Positions 376 to 23,344 of a DNA stretch of 53,797 nt are shown here, piece by piece (position 1 is the stretch's first letter; each line of letters opens with the position of its first letter). The notes under the pieces were generated by a model. It was not told the origin of the DNA. It ran no database searches and saw nothing but the letters and a program-made list of their open reading frames with translations. The position numbers and the translations under genes were made by a program. This stretch comes from Candidatus Aminicenantales bacterium (GTDB lineage: Bacteria > Acidobacteriota > Aminicenantia > Aminicenantales > Saccharicenantaceae), in NCBI GenBank assembly GCA_049512315.1, contig JBEKXF010000006.1, forward strand, positions 62,001 to 115,797, in the 5' to 3' direction.

Positions 376-1623
376 TCACATGCCATACTTGGCGATGATC
401 TCCTGCTTGGTCTTGCCCAGGATGTCGAACTTCTTGCCCACCTTGGTGAAGACCGCGAGCGCCTTGTCGAGGTGGTGAATCTCGTGGCCGGCCGAGATCT
501 GGGTCCGGATCCGGGCCTGGCCCTGGGGCACGACGGGGAAGAAAAAGCCGATGGCGTAGATCCCCTCGTCGTAAAGGCCCTGGGAGAAGTCCTGCGAGAG
601 CTTGGCGTTGAAGAACATGACGGGCACGATCGGGGTATCCCCTTCCTTGAGGACGAAACCGGCCTCGGTCAGCCCCTTCCTCCAGTAGGCGGCGTTCCGC
701 TCGAGCTTGTCGCGGCGCTCGGTCGACTTGGAGAGGATCTCCATGACCTTGAGGACGCCGGAGACGACGACCGGGGCGATGGTGTTCGAGAAGAGGTACG
801 GCCTGGCCCGCTGCCGGCAGAGCTCGACCAGCTCGCGGCGCCCCGAAACGCAGCCCCCGGACGCGCCCCCGAGGGCCTTGCCGAAGGTCGTCGTGATGAC
901 GTCGATCTTGCCCACGACGCCGCACCTCTCGTGGGTCCCGCGGCCGGTCCTGCCGATGAACCCCGTCGAGTGGGAATCGTCGACGAGGAGCATGGCGTCG
1001 TATTTCTCGCACAGGGCCACCATCTCATCGAGCTTGGCCGCGTCGCCGTCCATGGAGAAGACGCCGTCCGTGACGACGAGCTTGAAGCGCTTATCGGCGT
1101 GGAGCTGGAGCTTCTCCTCGAGGTGGGCCATGTCCGAATGCTTGATCGTGTCGTGCATGGCGCTGCAGAGCCGGATGCCGTCGACGAGCGAGGCGTGGAC
1201 GAGGCGGTCCGAGATGATGACGTCGTCCTTGGTCAGGATGGCTTCGAAGACGCCGGCGTTGGCGTCCATGCAGGAGGGGAAAAGGAGCGTGTCCTCTGTC
1301 CCCAGGAATTCGGTCAGGCGATGCTCGAGCTCGCGGTGGATGTCCTGGGTGCCGCAGATGAAGCGGACCGACGACATGCCGTAGCCGCGCGTCTCGAGCC
1401 CCTCGTGCGCCGCCTTGATGACGTCCGGGTGGCTCGAGAGCCCCAGGTAGTTGTTGGCGCACATATTGATGACTTTCTTGAGGGGCGAGCCGGCGGGGAA
1501 TTCGACCTCGATGTCGGCCGCCTGGGGCGAGTGGATGAACCGCTCCTGCTTAAAGAGGCCGGCGTCCTGGATGCCCTTGAGCTGACCCTGGTATGTCCCG
1601 CGGATCTTGTCGCTGTAAGCCAT
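376..1623 (-). CDS. kbl: Glycine C-acetyltransferase / 2-amino-3-ketobutyrate CoA ligase (PLP alpha-oxoamine synthase)
   Basis: Kbl-type motifs CANNYLGL, SVRFICGT, DDSH, TFGKALGG (PLP lysine), RPYLFSN, ARIRTQ. Start moved to MAYSDK at 1623, just after the ACP stop. Confidence 0.9.
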   Translation of the reverse strand: MAYSDKIRGTYQGQLKGIQDAGLFKQERFIHSPQAADIEVEFPAGSPLKKVINMCANNYLGLSSHPDVIKAAHEGLETRGYGMSSVRFICGTQDIHRELEHRLTEFLGTEDTLLFPSCMDANAGVFEAILTKDDVIISDRLVHASLVDGIRLCSAMHDTIKHSDMAHLEEKLQLHADKRFKLVVTDGVFSMDGDAAKLDEMVALCEKYDAMLLVDDSHSTGFIGRTGRGTHERCGVVGKIDVITTTFGKALGGASGGCVSGRRELVELCRQRARPYLFSNTIAPVVVSGVLKVMEILSKSTERRDKLERNAAYWRKGLTEAGFVLKEGDTPIVPVMFFNAKLSQDFSQGLYDEGIYAIGFFFPVVPQGQARIRTQISAGHEIHHLDKALAVFTKVGKKFDILGKTKQEIIAKYGM

Positions 1624-1627
1624 GGCT

Positions 1628-1888
1628 TTATCCCTTCTTCGCGACGAATTCCTGGACGAGGGAGGCGATCTTGTTGACCGAGTCGAAGGCCTCGGGAGTC
1701 GCCTTGTCATCCGGGATCTGGATCGCGTACTTGTTCTCGAGGAACCTCTTCAGCGAGACCATCGAGAACGAGTCCACGATCCCGCCCGAGATGAGGGGCG
1801 TGTCGTAGGTTAGGGCCTCGCTGTCGTCCTCAAGGTATTCCTTGGTCACGTAATTCAGGACGATGTCTTTCAAACCTTCCAGGGCCAT
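1628..1888 (-). CDS. Standalone acyl/peptidyl carrier protein
   Basis: 86 aa, acidic, GGIVDSFSMVSL phosphopantetheine-attachment motif; AGGAG RBS. Confidence 0.88.
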   Translation of the reverse strand: MALEGLKDIVLNYVTKEYLEDDSEALTYDTPLISGGIVDSFSMVSLKRFLENKYAIQIPDDKATPEAFDSVNKIASLVQEFVAKKG

Positions 1889-1918
1889 GGTATTTCTCCT
1901 TCTTATTCAGATTTTATG

Positions 1919-3622
1919 CTAATCGTTTTCAAGGGTGGAGGTGTCGCCGATCTCCTCGCCCCATTCTTTGGCGTGGAGGATGCGGCGCATGATCTTGCCG
2001 CTCCTCGTCTTGGGGAGCGACGGCACGAACTCGATCTCCTGCGGCATGGCCAGGGGCGAAAGCTTCTTCCGGATGAAGTTCATGATGTCGAGGTCAAGGT
2101 CCTGGCTGGCCGCGAAGCCCGGCTTGAGGGTCACAAAGGCCTTGACGACTTCCAGGTTGATCGGGTCGGGCTTGGAGACCACGGCCGATTCGGCGACCGC
2201 CGGGTGCTCGAGAAGGGCCGATTCGACCTCGAACGGGCTGACGAGATGCCCGGCCGTGTTGATGATGTCGTCGTCGCGGCCGGCGAACCAGAAGTAGCCG
2301 TCCTTGTCGAGCCGGGAGCGGTCGCCGGTGATGTACCAGCCGTTCCGGAACTTCTTCCGGAAGGCCTCTTCGTTGTTCCAGTAGGTCCGCATCCGCGAGG
2401 GCCAGTCGAACTTGAGGGCGACCAGGCCGATCTTCCCGTAGGTCGGGTACGGTTCGTTCTTGACCGGGTCCAGGACGGTGCCGGTGATGCCGGGGAAGGG
2501 CTTGCCCATGGAGCCCGCCCGGACCTCCATGCCCGGGTAGTTGCTGATGACGATGGAGCCCGTCTCCGTCTGCCAGTAGGTGTCGTAGAAGGGCTTGCCG
2601 AAGACTTTTTGTGACCACACGACCGCCTCGGAGTTCAAGGGCTCGCCGACGCTCGCCAAGTGCCGGAGAGAAGAGAGGTCGAATTTCTTGACGATCTCGT
2701 CCCCGGCTTTCATCAGCGAGCGGATGGCCGTCGGCGCCGAGTACCACATCGTGACCCGGCGCTTCTCGATAAACTTGTACCAGGCCTCGGCGGAGAAGCC
2801 GGCGTCGAAAACGCACTGGGTGACGCCCAGGGCGAAGGGGGCGATGATCCCGTAGGACGTCCCGGTAACCCAGCCGGGGTCGGCCGTGCACCAGTAGATG
2901 TCGTCGTCCCTGAGGTCGAGGGCCCACCTGGCCGTAAGGTATTGGGAGATGAGCGAGTAATGGACGTGCTGGACGCCCTTGGGCATCCCGGTCGTGCCTG
3001 ACGTGTAGTGGAGGACGGATGGGGACTCGGCCTTGGTCGGATAAATATCGAGGTGCTCGACAGGCGCGGCCTTCTCGAGGGAAAACGCAACCTCGCGGTC
3101 CCTTAGCGGTGACACGCCGTCATGGTCGACGATAATGATGTGTCTGATATGAGGCAGCTTCTCGAGAATTTTCCGGACTTTGGGGGCATGCTTCTTTTGG
3201 GTGATGACGGCCGAGGTCTCGGCGTTCGAGAGGCGGACGAAGAGCGACTCGTCGCCGAAGGCCGAAAATAGCGGCTGGGCGATGGCCCCGATCTTCAGGA
3301 TGCCCAGGAAGCCCAGATAAAGCTCGGGGATACGGTCCAAGAACAAGCAGACGCGCTCGCCGTCCTTCAGGCCGAGGCCGCGAAGGAAGGCGCCGATGGT
3401 GTTCGTGGCCATGCGGATGTCGTTGTAGGTGTAGGTCTTTTCGACGCCGGTGAAGCCTTCCCAGTAGAGGGCGACCCTCGACCCTTTCCCGAGCTTGCAG
3501 ATCCGGTCGGTGCAGTACCAGCCGATGTTGATGTCATCGCCGGGTTTGTAGCCAAGCTCCTTCTCGGCGATCTGCCAGGAGAAGTTCTTCACCCGCTCGT
3601 CGTATGAGCCGATATTGGACAT
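1919..3622 (-). CDS. acsA: AMP-forming acetate ligase (acetyl-CoA synthetase, short AcsA type)
   Basis: YTSGTTGMPKG loop, WCTADPGWVTG, SVGEPLN, DTYWQTETG, C-terminal LPKTRSGKIMRR. Confidence 0.88.
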   Translation of the reverse strand: MSNIGSYDERVKNFSWQIAEKELGYKPGDDINIGWYCTDRICKLGKGSRVALYWEGFTGVEKTYTYNDIRMATNTIGAFLRGLGLKDGERVCLFLDRIPELYLGFLGILKIGAIAQPLFSAFGDESLFVRLSNAETSAVITQKKHAPKVRKILEKLPHIRHIIIVDHDGVSPLRDREVAFSLEKAAPVEHLDIYPTKAESPSVLHYTSGTTGMPKGVQHVHYSLISQYLTARWALDLRDDDIYWCTADPGWVTGTSYGIIAPFALGVTQCVFDAGFSAEAWYKFIEKRRVTMWYSAPTAIRSLMKAGDEIVKKFDLSSLRHLASVGEPLNSEAVVWSQKVFGKPFYDTYWQTETGSIVISNYPGMEVRAGSMGKPFPGITGTVLDPVKNEPYPTYGKIGLVALKFDWPSRMRTYWNNEEAFRKKFRNGWYITGDRSRLDKDGYFWFAGRDDDIINTAGHLVSPFEVESALLEHPAVAESAVVSKPDPINLEVVKAFVTLKPGFAASQDLDLDIMNFIRKKLSPLAMPQEIEFVPSLPKTRSGKIMRRILHAKEWGEEIGDTSTLEND

Positions 3623-3645
3623 GATGATCGATCCTCCGTTCTCTT

Positions 3646-4029
3646 TTATTCCGTTTTGTTTTCCAGGACGACGACCGCCTTGGCCAGGTCCTTGATATGG
3701 GACAGCGAAGCCTGCATGCCGGTGATCTTGTGGGCCCGGCAGAACTCGCCGACTTTGCCGTGCACGAAAAGTTCGGGCTTGCCCAAGGCGTTGTTGACGA
3801 TTTCGATCTCGGAGAACTTGTGCCCGCCCGTCCAGCCCGTTCCCATGGCCTTGAGGAAGGCCTCCTTGGCGGCGAAGCGGGCGGCGTAGTGCTGGGCGGG
3901 GCGGTGCTTGGACTCGCAGTAGGCGATCTCAGTCGGGGTAAAGAGCTTGGCCTTGAGGCTCGCCGTGCGGACGAGCTTTTCCTCGACCCTCTGGACCTCG
4001 ATAATGTCCGTTCCGACGCCGAAAATCAA
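3646..4029 (-). CDS. acpS: Holo-ACP synthase (4'-phosphopantetheinyl transferase)
   Basis: GVGTDIIE, ARFAAKEAFLKA, GKP and SLSH motifs; TTG start. Confidence 0.92.
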   Translation of the reverse strand: MIFGVGTDIIEVQRVEEKLVRTASLKAKLFTPTEIAYCESKHRPAQHYAARFAAKEAFLKAMGTGWTGGHKFSEIEIVNNALGKPELFVHGKVGEFCRAHKITGMQASLSHIKDLAKAVVVLENKTE

Positions 4030-4128
4030 TGACTTACGTGCCTTTCGTCCGTGGCTACCGGGTCCCGCGGCGCTCGGCCGACCAGAGAAGCGGCGGCTTC
4101 AGCCGGAGTCCCATAATGACGGAATAGT

Positions 4129-4156
4129 ATTATAGATAACGGGCGGGAAATGTCAA
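4129..4156 (-). promoter_or_regulatory. Sigma-70-type promoter of the acpS-acsA-acp-kbl operon
   Basis: Minus strand reads TTGACA (4156-4151), 16 nt, TATAAT (4134-4129); both hexamers are perfect consensus. Confidence 0.75.
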
Positions 4157-4173: not shown

Positions 4174-4560
4174 TCAGAGGCGCTCGATGACTTTCCTGAG
4201 CTTCGCCCGGACTTCCAGCCCGACCGGCTCCAGGGCGGGATTTTGCACCGCCTGCATGGAGGCCACGGGGTCGATGGCCGCGACCTCGACCAGGCCCCCG
4301 GCCGTCTCCTGCACGATCACGTTGCAGGGCAGCATCAGGCCGATCTTGTCTTCGGCCAGGAGCGCCTTGTAGGCGTAAGGGGGATTGCAGGTCCCAAGGA
4401 TCCGATAATACCGGAAATCGACGTTGAGCTTCTCTTTCAGCGTCTCCCTGACGTCGATATCTGTCAGGATGCCAAATCCCTCCGTCTTGAGCTCCGCCTT
4501 GACCATTTCGACGGCCTCATCGAACGCGACATCGAGCATTTTGCTGAAAAAATAGCTCAT
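4174..4560 (-). CDS. DUF302 domain protein
   Basis: [19 protein letters not shown] and [11 protein letters not shown] motifs typical of DUF302. Confidence 0.85.
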
Positions 4561-4609
4561 CGATCTTTACTCCTTAAAGTTCGGTTTCCACGGAGAAAGG
4601 CGTTCCCAT

Positions 4610-5077
4610 CTAGCAGCGGCGCTTTCCTGCCAGGATTTCGGGCAAGACCTTGTCCAGAAATTCGGCCGGGCTGACTGTCTTGAACGGAAAGCCGCCTTTT
4701 TCTCCGATAAGAGAAATCAGCCTCTTATCGCCGGTCAAGAAATGATCCGCTTTCCCGTTGAGCACTGAGGCTAAAACGGGCAAATCCTTGTCATCCGCCG
4801 TTTCGGCGAGGGGTCGAAGGTCTTCCTGGGAGGGCAACGGTATGATCTCGAGCTTGAGTTTGGGCAAATAAAGACGGTAGATCGGAAGGGCGACGGCCAT
4901 CTTTTTCTGGAGGTTGCGTTCGATCTCATTCAAGTTAAAGCGTCCTGTCAGGCCGATCAAAACGGGAAGGTCTAAACTGAGAACGTCTAGGATCACGCGC
5001 GGCGCCCCCCGGTCCGAAAAAAGACCGGACAGGATAACATTCGAATCGAGGAAAAGCCTATGCTTTTTTGTCTCCAT
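4610..5077 (-). CDS. PIN-domain putative toxin (VapC-like)
   Basis: LFLDSNVILS, DDKD and LTGDKRL acidic PIN motifs; overlaps the upstream antitoxin by 20 nt. Confidence 0.85.
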   Translation of the reverse strand: METKKHRLFLDSNVILSGLFSDRGAPRVILDVLSLDLPVLIGLTGRFNLNEIERNLQKKMAVALPIYRLYLPKLKLEIIPLPSQEDLRPLAETADDKDLPVLASVLNGKADHFLTGDKRLISLIGEKGGFPFKTVSPAEFLDKVLPEILAGKRRC

Positions 5078-5345
5078 AGGTCTCCTCGAAGAGGTCTCCT
5101 CTTTCGGTATCGAGTCCTTCGAGCAATGCCTCGAGCGTCACGCCCGAAGCCTTCATGAGCTTGCGGATCTCCCGGCGTGCTTCATCAAGCTCGAGCCTTT
5201 TTGGGGTGACCAAAATGGAGTCCCCGACGGGGATAATGGATACGGTCTCTCCCTCATAGAGGTTTCCCTCCTCGCGGACCCTCTTAGGGATCGTGAGTTG
5301 TCCACGCGCTTTGATCTCGGCCTTATACGGCTTGACGCTTTCCAT
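5058..5345 (-). CDS. AbrB/MazE/SpoVT-family antitoxin
   Basis: IKARGQLTIPKRVRE swapped-hairpin motif; lies directly upstream of the PIN gene. Confidence 0.85.
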   Translation of the reverse strand: MESVKPYKAEIKARGQLTIPKRVREEGNLYEGETVSIIPVGDSILVTPKRLELDEARREIRKLMKASGVTLEALLEGLDTERGDLFEETYGDKKA

Positions 5346-19767: not shown

Positions 19768-21555
19768 TTATTCGCGGTAGAGGGAGTCGATGAGGTCCTT
19801 GTATTTCTCCTCGACGATGGCCCGCCGGACCTTGAGCGTCGGCGTGACCTCGCCCGACTCGATATCGAAGTCGCGGTCGAGGAGGGCGATCTTCTTGACC
19901 CGCTCGTAGGAGGCCAGGTCGGGGGTCGAGCGGTTGACCTCGGCCAGCATGAAGTCGACGACGTCCTGCCGGCGGCAGAGCTCGGCCCGGTCGCGGAAGG
20001 GGATGCCGTTCGTCCGGGCGTACTCCTCGAGCTTCCCGAACTCCGGGACGATCAGGGCGGAGATGAACCGCTTCCGTTCGCCGACGACGACCGCGCTCGC
20101 GATGTAAGGGTTGAGGCCGAGAACGCTCTCTATGGGCTGGGGCGCCACGTTTTTGCCGCCGGCCGTGACGATGAGGTCCTTCTTGCGGTCCGTAATGAAC
20201 AGGAAACCGTCCTGGTCCAAGGTACCGATGTCCCCCGTATGGAACCAGCCGCCCTCCATGGCCTCGCGCGTTTCGGCTTCCCGCTTGTAGTACCCCTGCA
20301 TGACGTTCGGGCCCCGGGCCAGGATCTCGCCGTCCGGCGCGATCGCGATCTCGACGCCGGGGATGGCCCGCCCCGCGCTCCCCAACCGATAGGCCTCGAA
20401 GCTGTTCCCGGTGAGAACGGGCGAGGTCTCGGTCAGGCCGTACCCGGGGAAAATGAAGAGCCCCATGGCGTAAAAGAATTCGGCGATGTCCGCGGCCAGG
20501 GGAGCCCCTCCACAGATGAAATAGCGCACCCGTCCGCCCGTCCGGGCCTGGATCTTCGAAAAAACGAGCCTCGCGGCGAGCTTATTTTTCAGCTGCAGGA
20601 CTCCGGAGACCGGCTGCCTCCCGATGATCTTCGCGGCGCACCTCCGGCCGACAGCAATGGCCCAAAAGAAAAGCGCTTTTTTCGGGGCCGGCATTTTCAG
20701 GACCATCTCCATGACCCGGGCGTACATCTTTTCGAACAGCCGGGGGACGCTGATCATGATCGTCGGCCGGACCTCGAGGAGGTTCTCGCTGACGGTCTCG
20801 ACGCTCTCGGCATAGGCGATCGTGGCTCCATGGTAAAGGAAGACGAAAGTCGCGGTCCTCTCGAGCACGTGGGAGAGGGGCAGGAACGACAGGGCCGTGT
20901 CCGTGGAAAGAAAGGGAACGACGAGGCCCACGGCCTTGATGTTGCTCACGAAATTCGCGTGGTTGAGCATGACGCCCTTGGGCGCGCCCGTCGTCCCCGA
21001 CGTGTAGATGATCGAGGCCAAATCGGACGGCTGGACGGCCAGGGCGTTGCGCTCGAAGAGTCCCGGGTCGGCCTCCGCGGCCCGCTTCCCCTTGCCCCTG
21101 ATTTCGCCGAGGGTCAGGATCCCGACCGGCTCCTCTTCATCGATCATGACGAAATGGCGGACCTCCGGAAGCTCGTCGCGGACGGCCTCGACCTTGAGCC
21201 AGAGCTCGCGGTTGGAGCAGATGACGATCCGGGCGTCCGAGTCGTTGATGATGTACTTGATCTGCTCGGGGAGGAGCGAGGCATAGATCGGCACCGTGAC
21301 CCCGCCGGCGCAGAGGATGGCCAGGTCCGTCATGACCCAATCGGGCCGGTTCTCGGACAGGATGACGGCCTTGTCGCCCGGCCTCAGGCCGAGCTCCTGG
21401 AAGCCCAGGGAGAGCTCCCTGACTCGGGTCTCGACCTCGGCCGTCGAGATCGGGGCATAACTTCCTTCGAGCTTGACCAGAAAAAGGGCCGGCTTGGGGT
21501 AGACCCGGCAGGTGTTCAGGAAGAGCCGGCTGAGGGTCGAAACGCTGTCCGTCAT
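19768..21555 (-). CDS. Long-chain fatty acid--CoA ligase (paralog 2)
   Basis: YTSGTTGAPKG, GYGLTET, HTGDIG and GGKNVAPQPIE motifs. Confidence 0.9.
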   Translation of the reverse strand: MTDSVSTLSRLFLNTCRVYPKPALFLVKLEGSYAPISTAEVETRVRELSLGFQELGLRPGDKAVILSENRPDWVMTDLAILCAGGVTVPIYASLLPEQIKYIINDSDARIVICSNRELWLKVEAVRDELPEVRHFVMIDEEEPVGILTLGEIRGKGKRAAEADPGLFERNALAVQPSDLASIIYTSGTTGAPKGVMLNHANFVSNIKAVGLVVPFLSTDTALSFLPLSHVLERTATFVFLYHGATIAYAESVETVSENLLEVRPTIMISVPRLFEKMYARVMEMVLKMPAPKKALFFWAIAVGRRCAAKIIGRQPVSGVLQLKNKLAARLVFSKIQARTGGRVRYFICGGAPLAADIAEFFYAMGLFIFPGYGLTETSPVLTGNSFEAYRLGSAGRAIPGVEIAIAPDGEILARGPNVMQGYYKREAETREAMEGGWFHTGDIGTLDQDGFLFITDRKKDLIVTAGGKNVAPQPIESVLGLNPYIASAVVVGERKRFISALIVPEFGKLEEYARTNGIPFRDRAELCRRQDVVDFMLAEVNRSTPDLASYERVKKIALLDRDFDIESGEVTPTLKVRRAIVEEKYKDLIDSLYRE

Positions 21556-21577
21556 GATACTCAGGGCCCGGGTCCGG

Positions 21578-23344
21578 TCAGTCCTTGTAAAAGAGGTCGA
21601 TCACCGGCTTGAACTTGGCCTCGACAAGGCTCCTCCTGACCTTGAGGGTGGGCGTGATCTCACCGGCTTCGATCTCGAAATCCCGGTCGAGGAGGGCGAT
21701 TTTCTTGATCCGCTCATAGGAGGCCAGGTCCGGGGTTGACCGGTTGACTTCGGCCAGCATGAAGTCGCGGATTTCCTCCCGGCCGCAGAGCTCGGCCCGA
21801 TCATGGAAGGGGATCCCGCTCGCCTTCGCGTAGGCCTCGAGCTTCTCGAAGTCCGGAACGATCAGGGCCGAGATGAACTTCCGGCTCCCCCCGACGACGA
21901 CGGCGTTCTGGACGTAGGGATTGGCCTTGATGAGGTTCTCGATGGGCTGGGGGGCCACGTTTTTCCCGCCGGCCGTGACGATGAGGTCCTTCTTGCGGTC
22001 CGTGATGACCAGGAACCCGTCCGGGTCCAGGTAACCGACGTCTCCCGTATGGAGCCAGCCCTCCGCCATGACCTCGCGGGTCTCGGCTTCCTTCTTGTAA
22101 TAGCCCTTCATGACGTTCGGCCCCCGGGCCAGGATCTCGCCGTCAGGGGCGATCCTGATGTCGACGCCAGGGACGGGCTTGCCGACCGTCCCAAACCGCA
22201 GGTTGTCGAACGTGTTGCAGGTCAGCACGGGCGAGGTCTCGGTCAGCCCGTAGCCCTCGAGGATAATGATGCCCAGGGCGTAGAAGAACTCGGCCACGTC
22301 TTTGGAGAGAGGCGCTCCCCCGGAGACGAAGAACTTGACGCGCCCGCCCGTCCGTTCGACGATCTTCGAGAAGACGAGCTTCCCGGCCAGTTTGCGCTGG
22401 GTCTCAAGCGTCCTGGAGATCGGCTCTTTCCGAAGTTTCTTCCCGCCGTACTTTTTCCCGACCCTAAGGGCCCAGAAGAAGATTTTCCGTTTCAGGGGGG
22501 ACTGCGTCAGGATGTTGTCCATGACCCGGGCGTAGATCTTGTCGAACAGGCGCGGCACGCTGATCATGATGGTCGGCCGGACCTCGACCAGGTTCTCGGC
22601 CACCGTATCGACGCTCTCGGCATAGGCGATCGAGGCCCCCTTGTAGAGGAACGAGAACGTCGTCATGCGCTCCAGGACATGGGTCAGCGGCAGGAAGGAC
22701 AGGATGGTGTCCGTGTGAACGAACTCGGTGACGGCGTCGAGGGCCTTGCTGTTGCTGACGAAATTCCCGTGGCTCAGCATGACACCCTTGGGCGTTCCCG
22801 TCGTTCCCGAGGTGTAGATGACCGAGGCCAGGTCATCCGGCCTGATGGCCGCGGCGACGGCGTCGAAGGTCCCGAGGGCCGACTCCCCCCGGCCCGCGAC
22901 CTCGCCGAGCGTCATGATCCCCGCCGGCGCCTCGTCATCGATCATAATGAAGTGACGGACCTTCGTGAGGTCCCTGCGGACGGCCTCGACTTTGATCCAG
23001 AGGTCGCGGTTGGAGCAGACGACGAACGCGGCGTCCGAATCGTCGATGATGTACTTAATCTGCTCGGGCATGAGCGAGGTGTAGATGGGCACGGTGATCC
23101 CGCCCGCGCAGAGGACGGCGAAGTCCGTCATGACCCATTCGGGCCGGTTCTCGGAGAAGATGACGACCTTGTCCCCCGGCTGGAGGCCGAGCTCCCGCAG
23201 CCCGGCCGAGAGGTGCCGCACCCGGGCCTCGAAGTCGGCCGTGGAGATGGGAACGTAACGGCCCTCCCGCTTGGACATCAGGAGGTTGTCTTTCCGGTAT
23301 GTCCGGCAGGTGTGCAAGAAAAGCTGGCTCAGGGTCTCGACCAT
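21578..23344 (-). CDS. Long-chain fatty acid--CoA ligase (paralog 1)
   Basis: YTSGTTGTPKG, GYGLTET, HTGDVG and GGKNVAPQPIE motifs. Confidence 0.9.
   Translation of the reverse strand: MVETLSQLFLHTCRTYRKDNLLMSKREGRYVPISTADFEARVRHLSAGLRELGLQPGDKVVIFSENRPEWVMTDFAVLCAGGITVPIYTSLMPEQIKYIIDDSDAAFVVCSNRDLWIKVEAVRRDLTKVRHFIMIDDEAPAGIMTLGEVAGRGESALGTFDAVAAAIRPDDLASVIYTSGTTGTPKGVMLSHGNFVSNSKALDAVTEFVHTDTILSFLPLTHVLERMTTFSFLYKGASIAYAESVDTVAENLVEVRPTIMISVPRLFDKIYARVMDNILTQSPLKRKIFFWALRVGKKYGGKKLRKEPISRTLETQRKLAGKLVFSKIVERTGGRVKFFVSGGAPLSKDVAEFFYALGIIILEGYGLTETSPVLTCNTFDNLRFGTVGKPVPGVDIRIAPDGEILARGPNVMKGYYKKEAETREVMAEGWLHTGDVGYLDPDGFLVITDRKKDLIVTAGGKNVAPQPIENLIKANPYVQNAVVVGGSRKFISALIVPDFEKLEAYAKASGIPFHDRAELCGREEIRDFMLAEVNRSTPDLASYERIKKIALLDRDFEIEAGEITPTLKVRRSLVEAKFKPVIDLFYKD

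Follow-up and report, generated by a model that had tools for sequence, protein, structure and literature searches.

A conserved acpS-acetate ligase-carrier protein-kbl operon and a probable acetyl-carrier relay between threonine, glycine and acetate

Why should the gene for a glycine C-acetyltransferase (Kbl) lie directly behind that for a dedicated carrier protein, and does the enzyme exchange its acetyl group with that carrier instead of coenzyme A (CoA)? The question is raised by a four-gene operon in a Candidatus Aminicenantales bacterium (assembly GCA_049512315.1), found in a window of 53,797 nucleotides (contig JBEKXF010000006.1, positions 62,001 to 115,797). The co-oriented genes encode an AcpS-type phosphopantetheinyl transferase, a short AcsA-type acetate ligase, a stand-alone acyl carrier protein (ACP) together with a Kbl (Table 1). 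It was originally predicted from the DNA alone that the ACP is private to this operon and carries acetyl between ligase and Kbl. Synteny, the residues of the Kbl and an ACP-linked sister clade of the ligase all favour the carrier part of that proposal, whose footing is comparative genomics. We consider it probable that an acetyl-ACP relay links threonine and glycine with acetate, and that the Kbl, a member of a clade here called K1, depends on the carrier and not on CoA.

The operon is a real and widespread module of many, mostly uncultured, bacteria. A scan of species genomes confirmed at least 465 relatives of the ACP, and synteny was counted in the best 80 of these (72-100% identity), which are labelled in their records as members of about ten phylum-level groups and are mostly metagenome-assembled genomes of Aminicenantes and Bacteroidales; records labelled ‘Eubacteriales’ nest within Aminicenantes, and this label looks doubtful. 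In 79 of the 80 loci the gene next after the ACP is Kbl, the remaining locus being untestable; the ligase precedes the ACP in 77, and acpS stands immediately ahead of the place of the ligase in 64 (12 do not have it there and 4 are untestable). A metagenome scan seeded with Kbl rather than ACP provides an independent test of the association and returned 79 loci. Twenty of these Kbls carry Arg140, a mark of K1, and the ACP stands directly upstream in 19 and one gene away in the last, where the order is ligase-ACP-inserted gene-Kbl. Beside Kbls lacking Arg140 the ACP was found in 0 of 52 testable loci, a further 7 being untestable. The gene order, whose absence from other genomes would have told against the prediction, is therefore conserved. 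Within the class of the host, 84 of 120 sampled genomes have the ACP and 36 do not, with a sharp division by family: three families have it throughout (23/23, 47/47 and 6/6), a fourth has it in 1/14, and five small ones taken together in 0/20. The ligase occurs in 17 of 200 sampled Bacteroidales genomes and is missing from 183. Such full retention in two large families (23/23 and 47/47), together with its occurrence in Bacteroidales, suggests that the cassette probably matters to the organisms that carry it.

The Kbl carries its own marks of this association. It exceeds the cutoff of the Kbl model TIGR01822, models for serine palmitoyltransferase (SPT), BioF and ALAS all fall below theirs (the three for SPT, with cutoffs of 500-670, give 240-306), and the best PDB matches of K1 are Kbl. 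The motif SVRFICG is invariant in 34/34 cassette Kbls, and K249, the lysine for pyridoxal phosphate (PLP), aligns with that of E. coli Kbl. In a quick SH-aLRT tree, 67 K1 rows fall on one branch with 100% support and a length of 0.74, although this monophyly is partly circular, as the labels K1, K2 and K3 were assigned by identity to the query. All 67 possess R140, V142, P116, M119, H162 and H167, and where ordinary Kbls have the segments D-x-L-N-H-A-S and S-x-x-F all 67 read DRLVHAS and FPSCMDAN. Arg140, His162, His167 and Asp194 of K1 align with R130, H152, H157 and D183 of E. coli BioF, an enzyme that accepts an acyl-ACP and whose R130 we assume to be an ACP contact. Judged by these residues, K1 is a separate, ACP-linked Kbl clade marked by Arg140. 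Of 50 cassette genomes drawn from the 80, the sample used for all counts out of 50, 27 have a second Kbl of the ordinary kind, and in 26/80 one lies within the fetched locus, for example at L002:4517-5716. At L033, L065, L067, L073 and L078 a tandem second Kbl of another kind, K3, lies directly downstream of K1; it is sister to K1, has no K1 signature, and is a possible intermediate in the origin of that clade.

The carrier, of 86 residues, has no Pfam match and matches ACP and DltC hidden Markov models (HMMs) weakly; with a TIGR00517 (AcpP) score of 24 against a cutoff of 70, it does not belong with the housekeeping ACPs of fatty acid synthesis. The predicted structure (pLDDT 84) has helices at 6-18, 40-54 and 71-85 and is closest in fold to PigG, PltL and DltC, with TM values of 0.82-0.86 to PigG and PltL. 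Taken together, sequence and fold match best to type II peptidyl carrier proteins (PCPs) and DltC, and the model folds like carriers that are loaded by stand-alone adenylating enzymes. D39 and S40 are invariant, and a helical bundle with a serine starting helix II is what the carrier-protein superfamily has in common. The segment from Ser40 carries a net charge of +2 in 34/34 homologues, whereas the housekeeping ACP of the host (C9) is acidic, and 40 of about 80 positions are invariant among these 34 sequences. Family and position make Ser40 the likely site of loading by AcpS.

The ligase exceeds the cutoff of PRK04319 and falls below that of TIGR02188, the canonical Acs (501 against 725), as well as below those of long-chain ligase models. 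It retains V252, T253, V325 and W350, which we take to line the acetate pocket, and Lys543, the catalytic and regulatory lysine. The profile cutoffs bear out three of the identities originally proposed, a phosphopantetheinyl transferase, a short AcsA, and a Kbl rather than an SPT or BioF; for the fourth, a carrier with a DSF serine, the sequence and fold matches do so. At the position of E. coli Acs Arg526 the residue is Leu in 73/73 cassette ligases. This position lies just past the A8 glycine, which lines the pantetheine tunnel (PMC11255334). Among 38 listed plasmid matches to the ligase, 14 were opened (43-49% identity): 9 belong to acsA-pdhA(B)-E2-ACP cassettes, which pair the ligase with pyruvate dehydrogenase (PDH) components and contain no E3, and 5 are lone acsA of the Bacillus type; one more PDH cassette is found in genome G030. 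The Arg526 position is Leu or Met in 10/10 PDH-cassette ligases and Arg in all five lone acsA, and all ACP-linked ligases read G-H-L/M where lone acsA read G-E-R. In the ligase tree, a quick SH-aLRT tree like that of Kbl, the ligases of the two cassettes group with moderate support (88), and those of the PDH cassettes are probably the sister clade. Comparison with CoA-using homologs, as suggested at the outset, hence places the Kbl on a long branch of its own and the ligase in an ACP-linked group, and the cassette ligase is best read as a putative acetate:ACP ligase. The PDH cassettes (L082-L085, L087, L091, L092, L096, L098, L099) occur in Proteobacteria, Desulfobacterota, Actinomycetota and one Bipolaricaulota genome; two copies adjoin ppsA and pfkB, and two adjoin universal stress proteins.

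From the genes, order, co-occurrence, clade-specific residues and purifying selection that are directly observed, the following loading, binding and flux are predicted. AcpS would arm Ser40 of the carrier with phosphopantetheine, and K1 would take the holo-ACP in place of CoA (2-amino-3-ketobutyrate + ACP-SH <-> glycine + acetyl-ACP). The ligase would interconvert acetyl-ACP + AMP + pyrophosphate (PPi) and acetate + ATP + ACP-SH, and a threonine dehydrogenase (TDH), which is present elsewhere in the genome, would connect the ketobutyrate with threonine. As the chain in its entirety lies close to equilibrium at standard conditions, a private carrier would free the ratio of acetylated to free carrier from the CoA pool, whichever direction is taken. 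A broader suggestion, which we offer tentatively and think somewhat doubtful, is that AcsA-like enzymes of a hitherto unrecognised clade carry out substrate-level phosphorylation with a private protein carrier, making ATP from AMP and PPi insulated from the CoA pool. An acetyl-producing catabolic enzyme, PDH E1/E2 in one cassette and the rewired Kbl in the other, would keep its dedicated ACP highly acetylated, and discharge of the acetyl-ACP would fall to the ligase.

A number of observations weigh against such a relay. At L121 and L124 the ACP is followed by a Kbl without the K1 signature, and L116, seen once, has acpS-ligase-ACP with no adjacent Kbl. The ligase retains Arg at the equivalents of Acs R194 and R584, presumably CoA contacts, so that it may use CoA, and the carriers of the Kbl and PDH cassettes are only 11-20% identical. 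Ten genomes of the host class were selected because their ligase is not beside the ACP, or as congeners of such genomes; the cassette ligase was not found in 7 and is present somewhere in 3. The ligase-less genomes are 87-94% complete and belong to genus g7 (3/3), g44 (3/3) and g46 (1/1); three carry a canonical Acs instead, and six have a full, signature-bearing K1 beside the ACP, the seventh running off its contig. ACPs of g7 are 95-96% identical at saturated synonymous sites, indicating strong purifying selection, and one g44 pair (dN/dS 0.60 at very low dS) is uninformative and lends no support either. The ACP tracks Kbl more tightly than it tracks the ligase. Since ACP and K1 are kept without it in these seven genomes from three genera, the ligase is not an indispensable partner, and acetyl-ACP could also be supplied or consumed by something else.

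The persistence of ACP and K1 under purifying selection without the ligase, like the unusual invariance of the carrier, would also fit an ACP whose role towards K1 is regulatory or structural, with its acetylation reporting acetate or energy status while flux passes through CoA. We know of no precedent for a regulatory ACP in oxoamine synthases, and the dedicated AcpS, the invariant serine and the ACP-linked ligase clade in two kinds of cassette fit a catalytic carrier better; we regard this alternative as improbable. The differences of K1 near the cofactor site (P116, M119, V142) and the likeness of the carrier to natural-product PCPs could instead mean that K1 joins acetyl-ACP to glycine or another small amino acid, to yield an aminoketone destined for some lipid, cofactor or secondary metabolite. 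This seems very unlikely, as SVRFICG, the motif of Kbl, does not vary, the gene families neighbouring 81 loci include no recurrent one for tailoring or lipids, and TDH co-occurs in 48/50 genomes. Lower still we place an ordinary CoA-using pair of AcsA and Kbl with the ACP an incidental neighbour. Both enzymes do pass ordinary equivalog cutoffs, and 39/50 genomes yielded no Acs-like gene besides the ligase, but such a neighbour would hardly be expected to show the 20/20 against 0/52 association with Arg140, conservation across about ten phylum-level labels, and linkage to acpS.

If the acetyl-ACP relay is real, the direction in which it runs is a separate matter. Breakdown of threonine to glycine and acetate with ATP formed from AMP and PPi has close to an even chance, synthesis of threonine from acetate and glycine is possible but on the unlikely side, conversion of acetate to acetyl-CoA through K1 and the second, ordinary Kbl is unlikely, and there is a slight chance of condition-dependent reversal. 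We thus lean, with low confidence, to the catabolic, ATP-forming direction over the forward one, which is plausible too. The lean is in part owed to the finding that canonical threonine synthesis is not displaced by the cassette. In the sister cassette this type of ligase stands with PDH, which produces acetyl irreversibly, and no other consumer of acetyl-carrier is encoded; this further supports catabolism and strengthens the ATP-forming option of the original prediction. The membrane pyrophosphatase in the host genome was counted for this direction, and Syntrophus aciditrophicus Acs1 provides a parallel, forming ATP from acetyl-CoA, AMP and PPi (PMC4992975; PMC8942843). Other evidence pulls against catabolism: acetate transporters lie near the cassette (SatP in 18/80 loci, ActP-like in 6/80), AckA is present in 43/50 cassette genomes, and the net free energy of the reverse reaction is marginal (+5 to -8.5 kJ/mol, estimated, like all energies here, from general background values, with concentrations assumed).

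Much of this would suit the same relay serving biosynthesis, with ATP-driven acetyl-ACP driving glycine condensation and TDH reducing the product to threonine. Acetate + glycine + NADH + ATP -> threonine + NAD + AMP + PPi comes to +1 to +14 kJ/mol, and to about -8 to -21 kJ/mol with PPi hydrolysis. The SatP and ActP-like neighbours and AckA fit this purpose, homoserine dehydrogenase (Hom) was not found in 21/50 cassette genomes, and searches with four models gave no homoserine kinase above cutoff in the host genome. Characterised triads of ligase, carrier and oxoamine synthase run forward (PMC9386255), and Kbl with Tdh can form threonine (bioRxiv 10.1101/2022.10.19.512895). A ThrA-size gene occurs in 1/17 cassette Bacteroidales against 61/183 others (p = 0.025, from a post hoc hand count), the one cassette genome with it having neither an adjacent Kbl nor SDR-type (short-chain dehydrogenase/reductase) TDH. 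On the other side, the neighbouring ordinary Kbl (26/80 loci) would drain the intermediate to acetyl-CoA, and the counts of threonine genes show no exclusion. In Bacteroidales, ThrC is found in 8/17 cassette genomes and 84/183 others (p = 1) and any Hom in 6/17 and 100/183 (p = 0.14); here, as with the other p values, significance is overstated, as related genomes are not independent. In the host class ThrB is found in 10/84 genomes with the ACP and 5/36 without, the TIGR02535 kinase in 16/84 and 0/36, and the two homoserine kinase models summed in 26/84 and 5/36. Overall we hold the biosynthetic purpose to be unlikely, though plausible.

The survey of tdh and thrBC put forward with the original prediction returned a divided answer. 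TDH was found in 48/50 cassette genomes: 44 have the SDR type and a further 4 the Zn type, with two untested for the latter; the Zn type was found in 5/5 SDR-less genomes tested. SDR-type TDH in Bacteroidales has a high background (15/17 cassette genomes against 137/183 others, p = 0.37). ThrC in the Bacteroidales sample and the homoserine kinases in that of the host class showed no exclusion with the cassette, and replacement of canonical threonine synthesis is not supported. An alternative threonine route as the reason for the cassette accordingly finds no support, and no linked gene points to the aminopropanol once suggested. Both congeners of the host have ThrB. We considered whether the host thrB lies just off contig C14, which proved wrong; the dapA-thrB-like block of a congener (L132:1554-5100) has no match in the host assembly, reflecting either loss or a gap. 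In several Bacteroidales in which Hom was not found (L105-L112; L114:4174-5583), thrC lies directly behind the gene for a Cys/Met-metabolism PLP enzyme of 486-489 aa that reaches none of the NCBIfam cutoffs shown; ThrH or a PGM-type kinase mostly comes next. A relative of this enzyme adjoins hom in the host genome. ThrC without Hom occurs in 6/17 cassette and 13/183 other Bacteroidales (p = 0.002, post hoc), and the pair is possibly an undescribed sulfur-amino-acid route to threonine.

The nearest known system is the AasR/AcpR/SPT set of Caulobacter and other Rhodobacteria, in which ligase, dedicated ACP and oxoamine synthase bypass CoA (PMC9386255). The cassette shares with it the genetic linkage of adenylating ligase, dedicated ACP and alpha-oxoamine synthase, but has an acetate-size pocket and a Kbl-class enzyme in place of long-chain acyl groups and SPT, a basic helix II where AcpR keeps acidic residues, an acpS of its own and possibly the reverse direction. 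With the Tdh-Kbl pair (E. coli kbl-tdh; 1FC4, 7BXP) it has in common the Kbl cutoff, SVRFICG, K249 and the co-occurring TDH, whereas K1 is a separate clade (R140, V142, P116, M119), tied to the ACP and often beside an ordinary Kbl. Compared with Bacillus AcsA (PRK04319; PDB 9G79; PMC11255334), the ligase belongs to the same short family, with acetate pocket and regulatory lysine, but has G-H-L not G-E-R after the A8 glycine, FSAFG not FEAFM, and an ACP rather than acuABC as neighbour. The acsA-pdhA-pdhB-E2-ACP cassette has the probable sister ligase, the common substitutions and a stand-alone ACP; it differs in its partner, PDH E1/E2 without E3, and in its distant ACP. Unlike the cassette ligase, Acs1 takes acetyl-CoA, and Syntrophus has no Pta/AckA, against the frequent AckA of cassette genomes. 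No paper describing the Kbl cassette was found in a literature search whose coverage left out most subscription journals, nor one on the acsA-pdhA-pdhB-E2-ACP cassette or, judged by titles and the openings of abstracts, on a complex of BioF with ACP, and the acpS-ligase-ACP-Kbl module is apparently undescribed. If the relay is true, a carrier protein enters core amino-acid and acetate metabolism, where CoA alone was expected, and genes that pass the acetate-CoA ligase and Kbl cutoffs in hundreds of genomes (at least 465 ACP relatives) are misread in metabolic models. It is open to test with five small soluble proteins, and the outcome would also be informative for the PDH-AcsA-ACP cassette, which cultured bacteria such as Desulfotalea psychrophila and Methylocystis rosea carry.

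Table 1. Features of the operon, in positions of the window
Feature	Position	Strand	Details
Sigma-70-type promoter match TTGACA-16 nt-TATAAT	4129..4156	-	12/12 consensus; predicted
AcpS-type phosphopantetheinyl transferase	3646..4029	-	127 aa, TTG start; TIGR00516 90.7 > cutoff 59.8
AcsA-type AMP-forming acetate ligase	1919..3622	-	567 aa; PRK04319 748 > 729
Stand-alone carrier protein	1628..1888	-	86 aa; Ser40 in GIVDSFS; type II PCP/DltC-like; basic helix II
Kbl (glycine C-acetyltransferase), ACP-linked clade K1	376..1623	-	415 aa; TIGR01822 564 > 493

In the host itself, the reading frames, profile scores and gaps of 23, 30 and 4 nt between acpS, ligase, ACP and Kbl agree with the closely spaced operon described at the outset, and the perfect-hexamer promoter was likewise recovered. 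The promoter match ends 99 nt ahead of the acpS start; shuffles gave 0.7 +/- 0.7 promoter-like sites, where the actual sequence has 3. In one sediment metatranscriptome 5% of words matched, from only short contigs of relatives, which is not evidence of expression. As first noted, no tdh was found in the window; the SDR-type TDH of the host lies on C14 (77511-76573). That fab, PKS and NRPS condensing genes are not visible there either was likewise first noted, and no search aimed at them was made. In this genome, which is 96.6% complete, the ligase is the sole Acs-like gene above 30% identity and the Kbl the sole Kbl; a second member of the Kbl family on C14 (38%) scored best as SPT-like, below cutoff, and was not counted. 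In L002, the closest relative, a kbl of the ordinary kind stands immediately upstream of acpS, where the window has DUF302, PIN and AbrB/MazE-like genes (4174-5345), and the host genome appears to have lost this second kbl.

Just outside the window, two genes downstream of kbl, lies a SatP acetate transporter (C6:61035-61613), with a desulfoferrodoxin-domain gene in between. Further on are what we take to be a formate-tetrahydrofolate ligase and a porin-like gene, the family of the latter having no HMM match. At C6:43513-46188, a presumably Pat-like fusion of ADP-forming acyl-CoA ligase domains with a GNAT domain keeps the ASHTG histidine, and relatives of this fusion occur within 19/80 cassette loci. 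The window also encodes two tandem AMP-binding enzymes (19768-23344; 595 and 588 aa) that are 24-28% identical to the ligase. A separate carrier system is found at C10:66000-82000 (L102), with two further DltC-like carriers, each adjoining an adenylating enzyme, and genes that we assume to be asparagine-synthase-like and NAD-synthetase-like.

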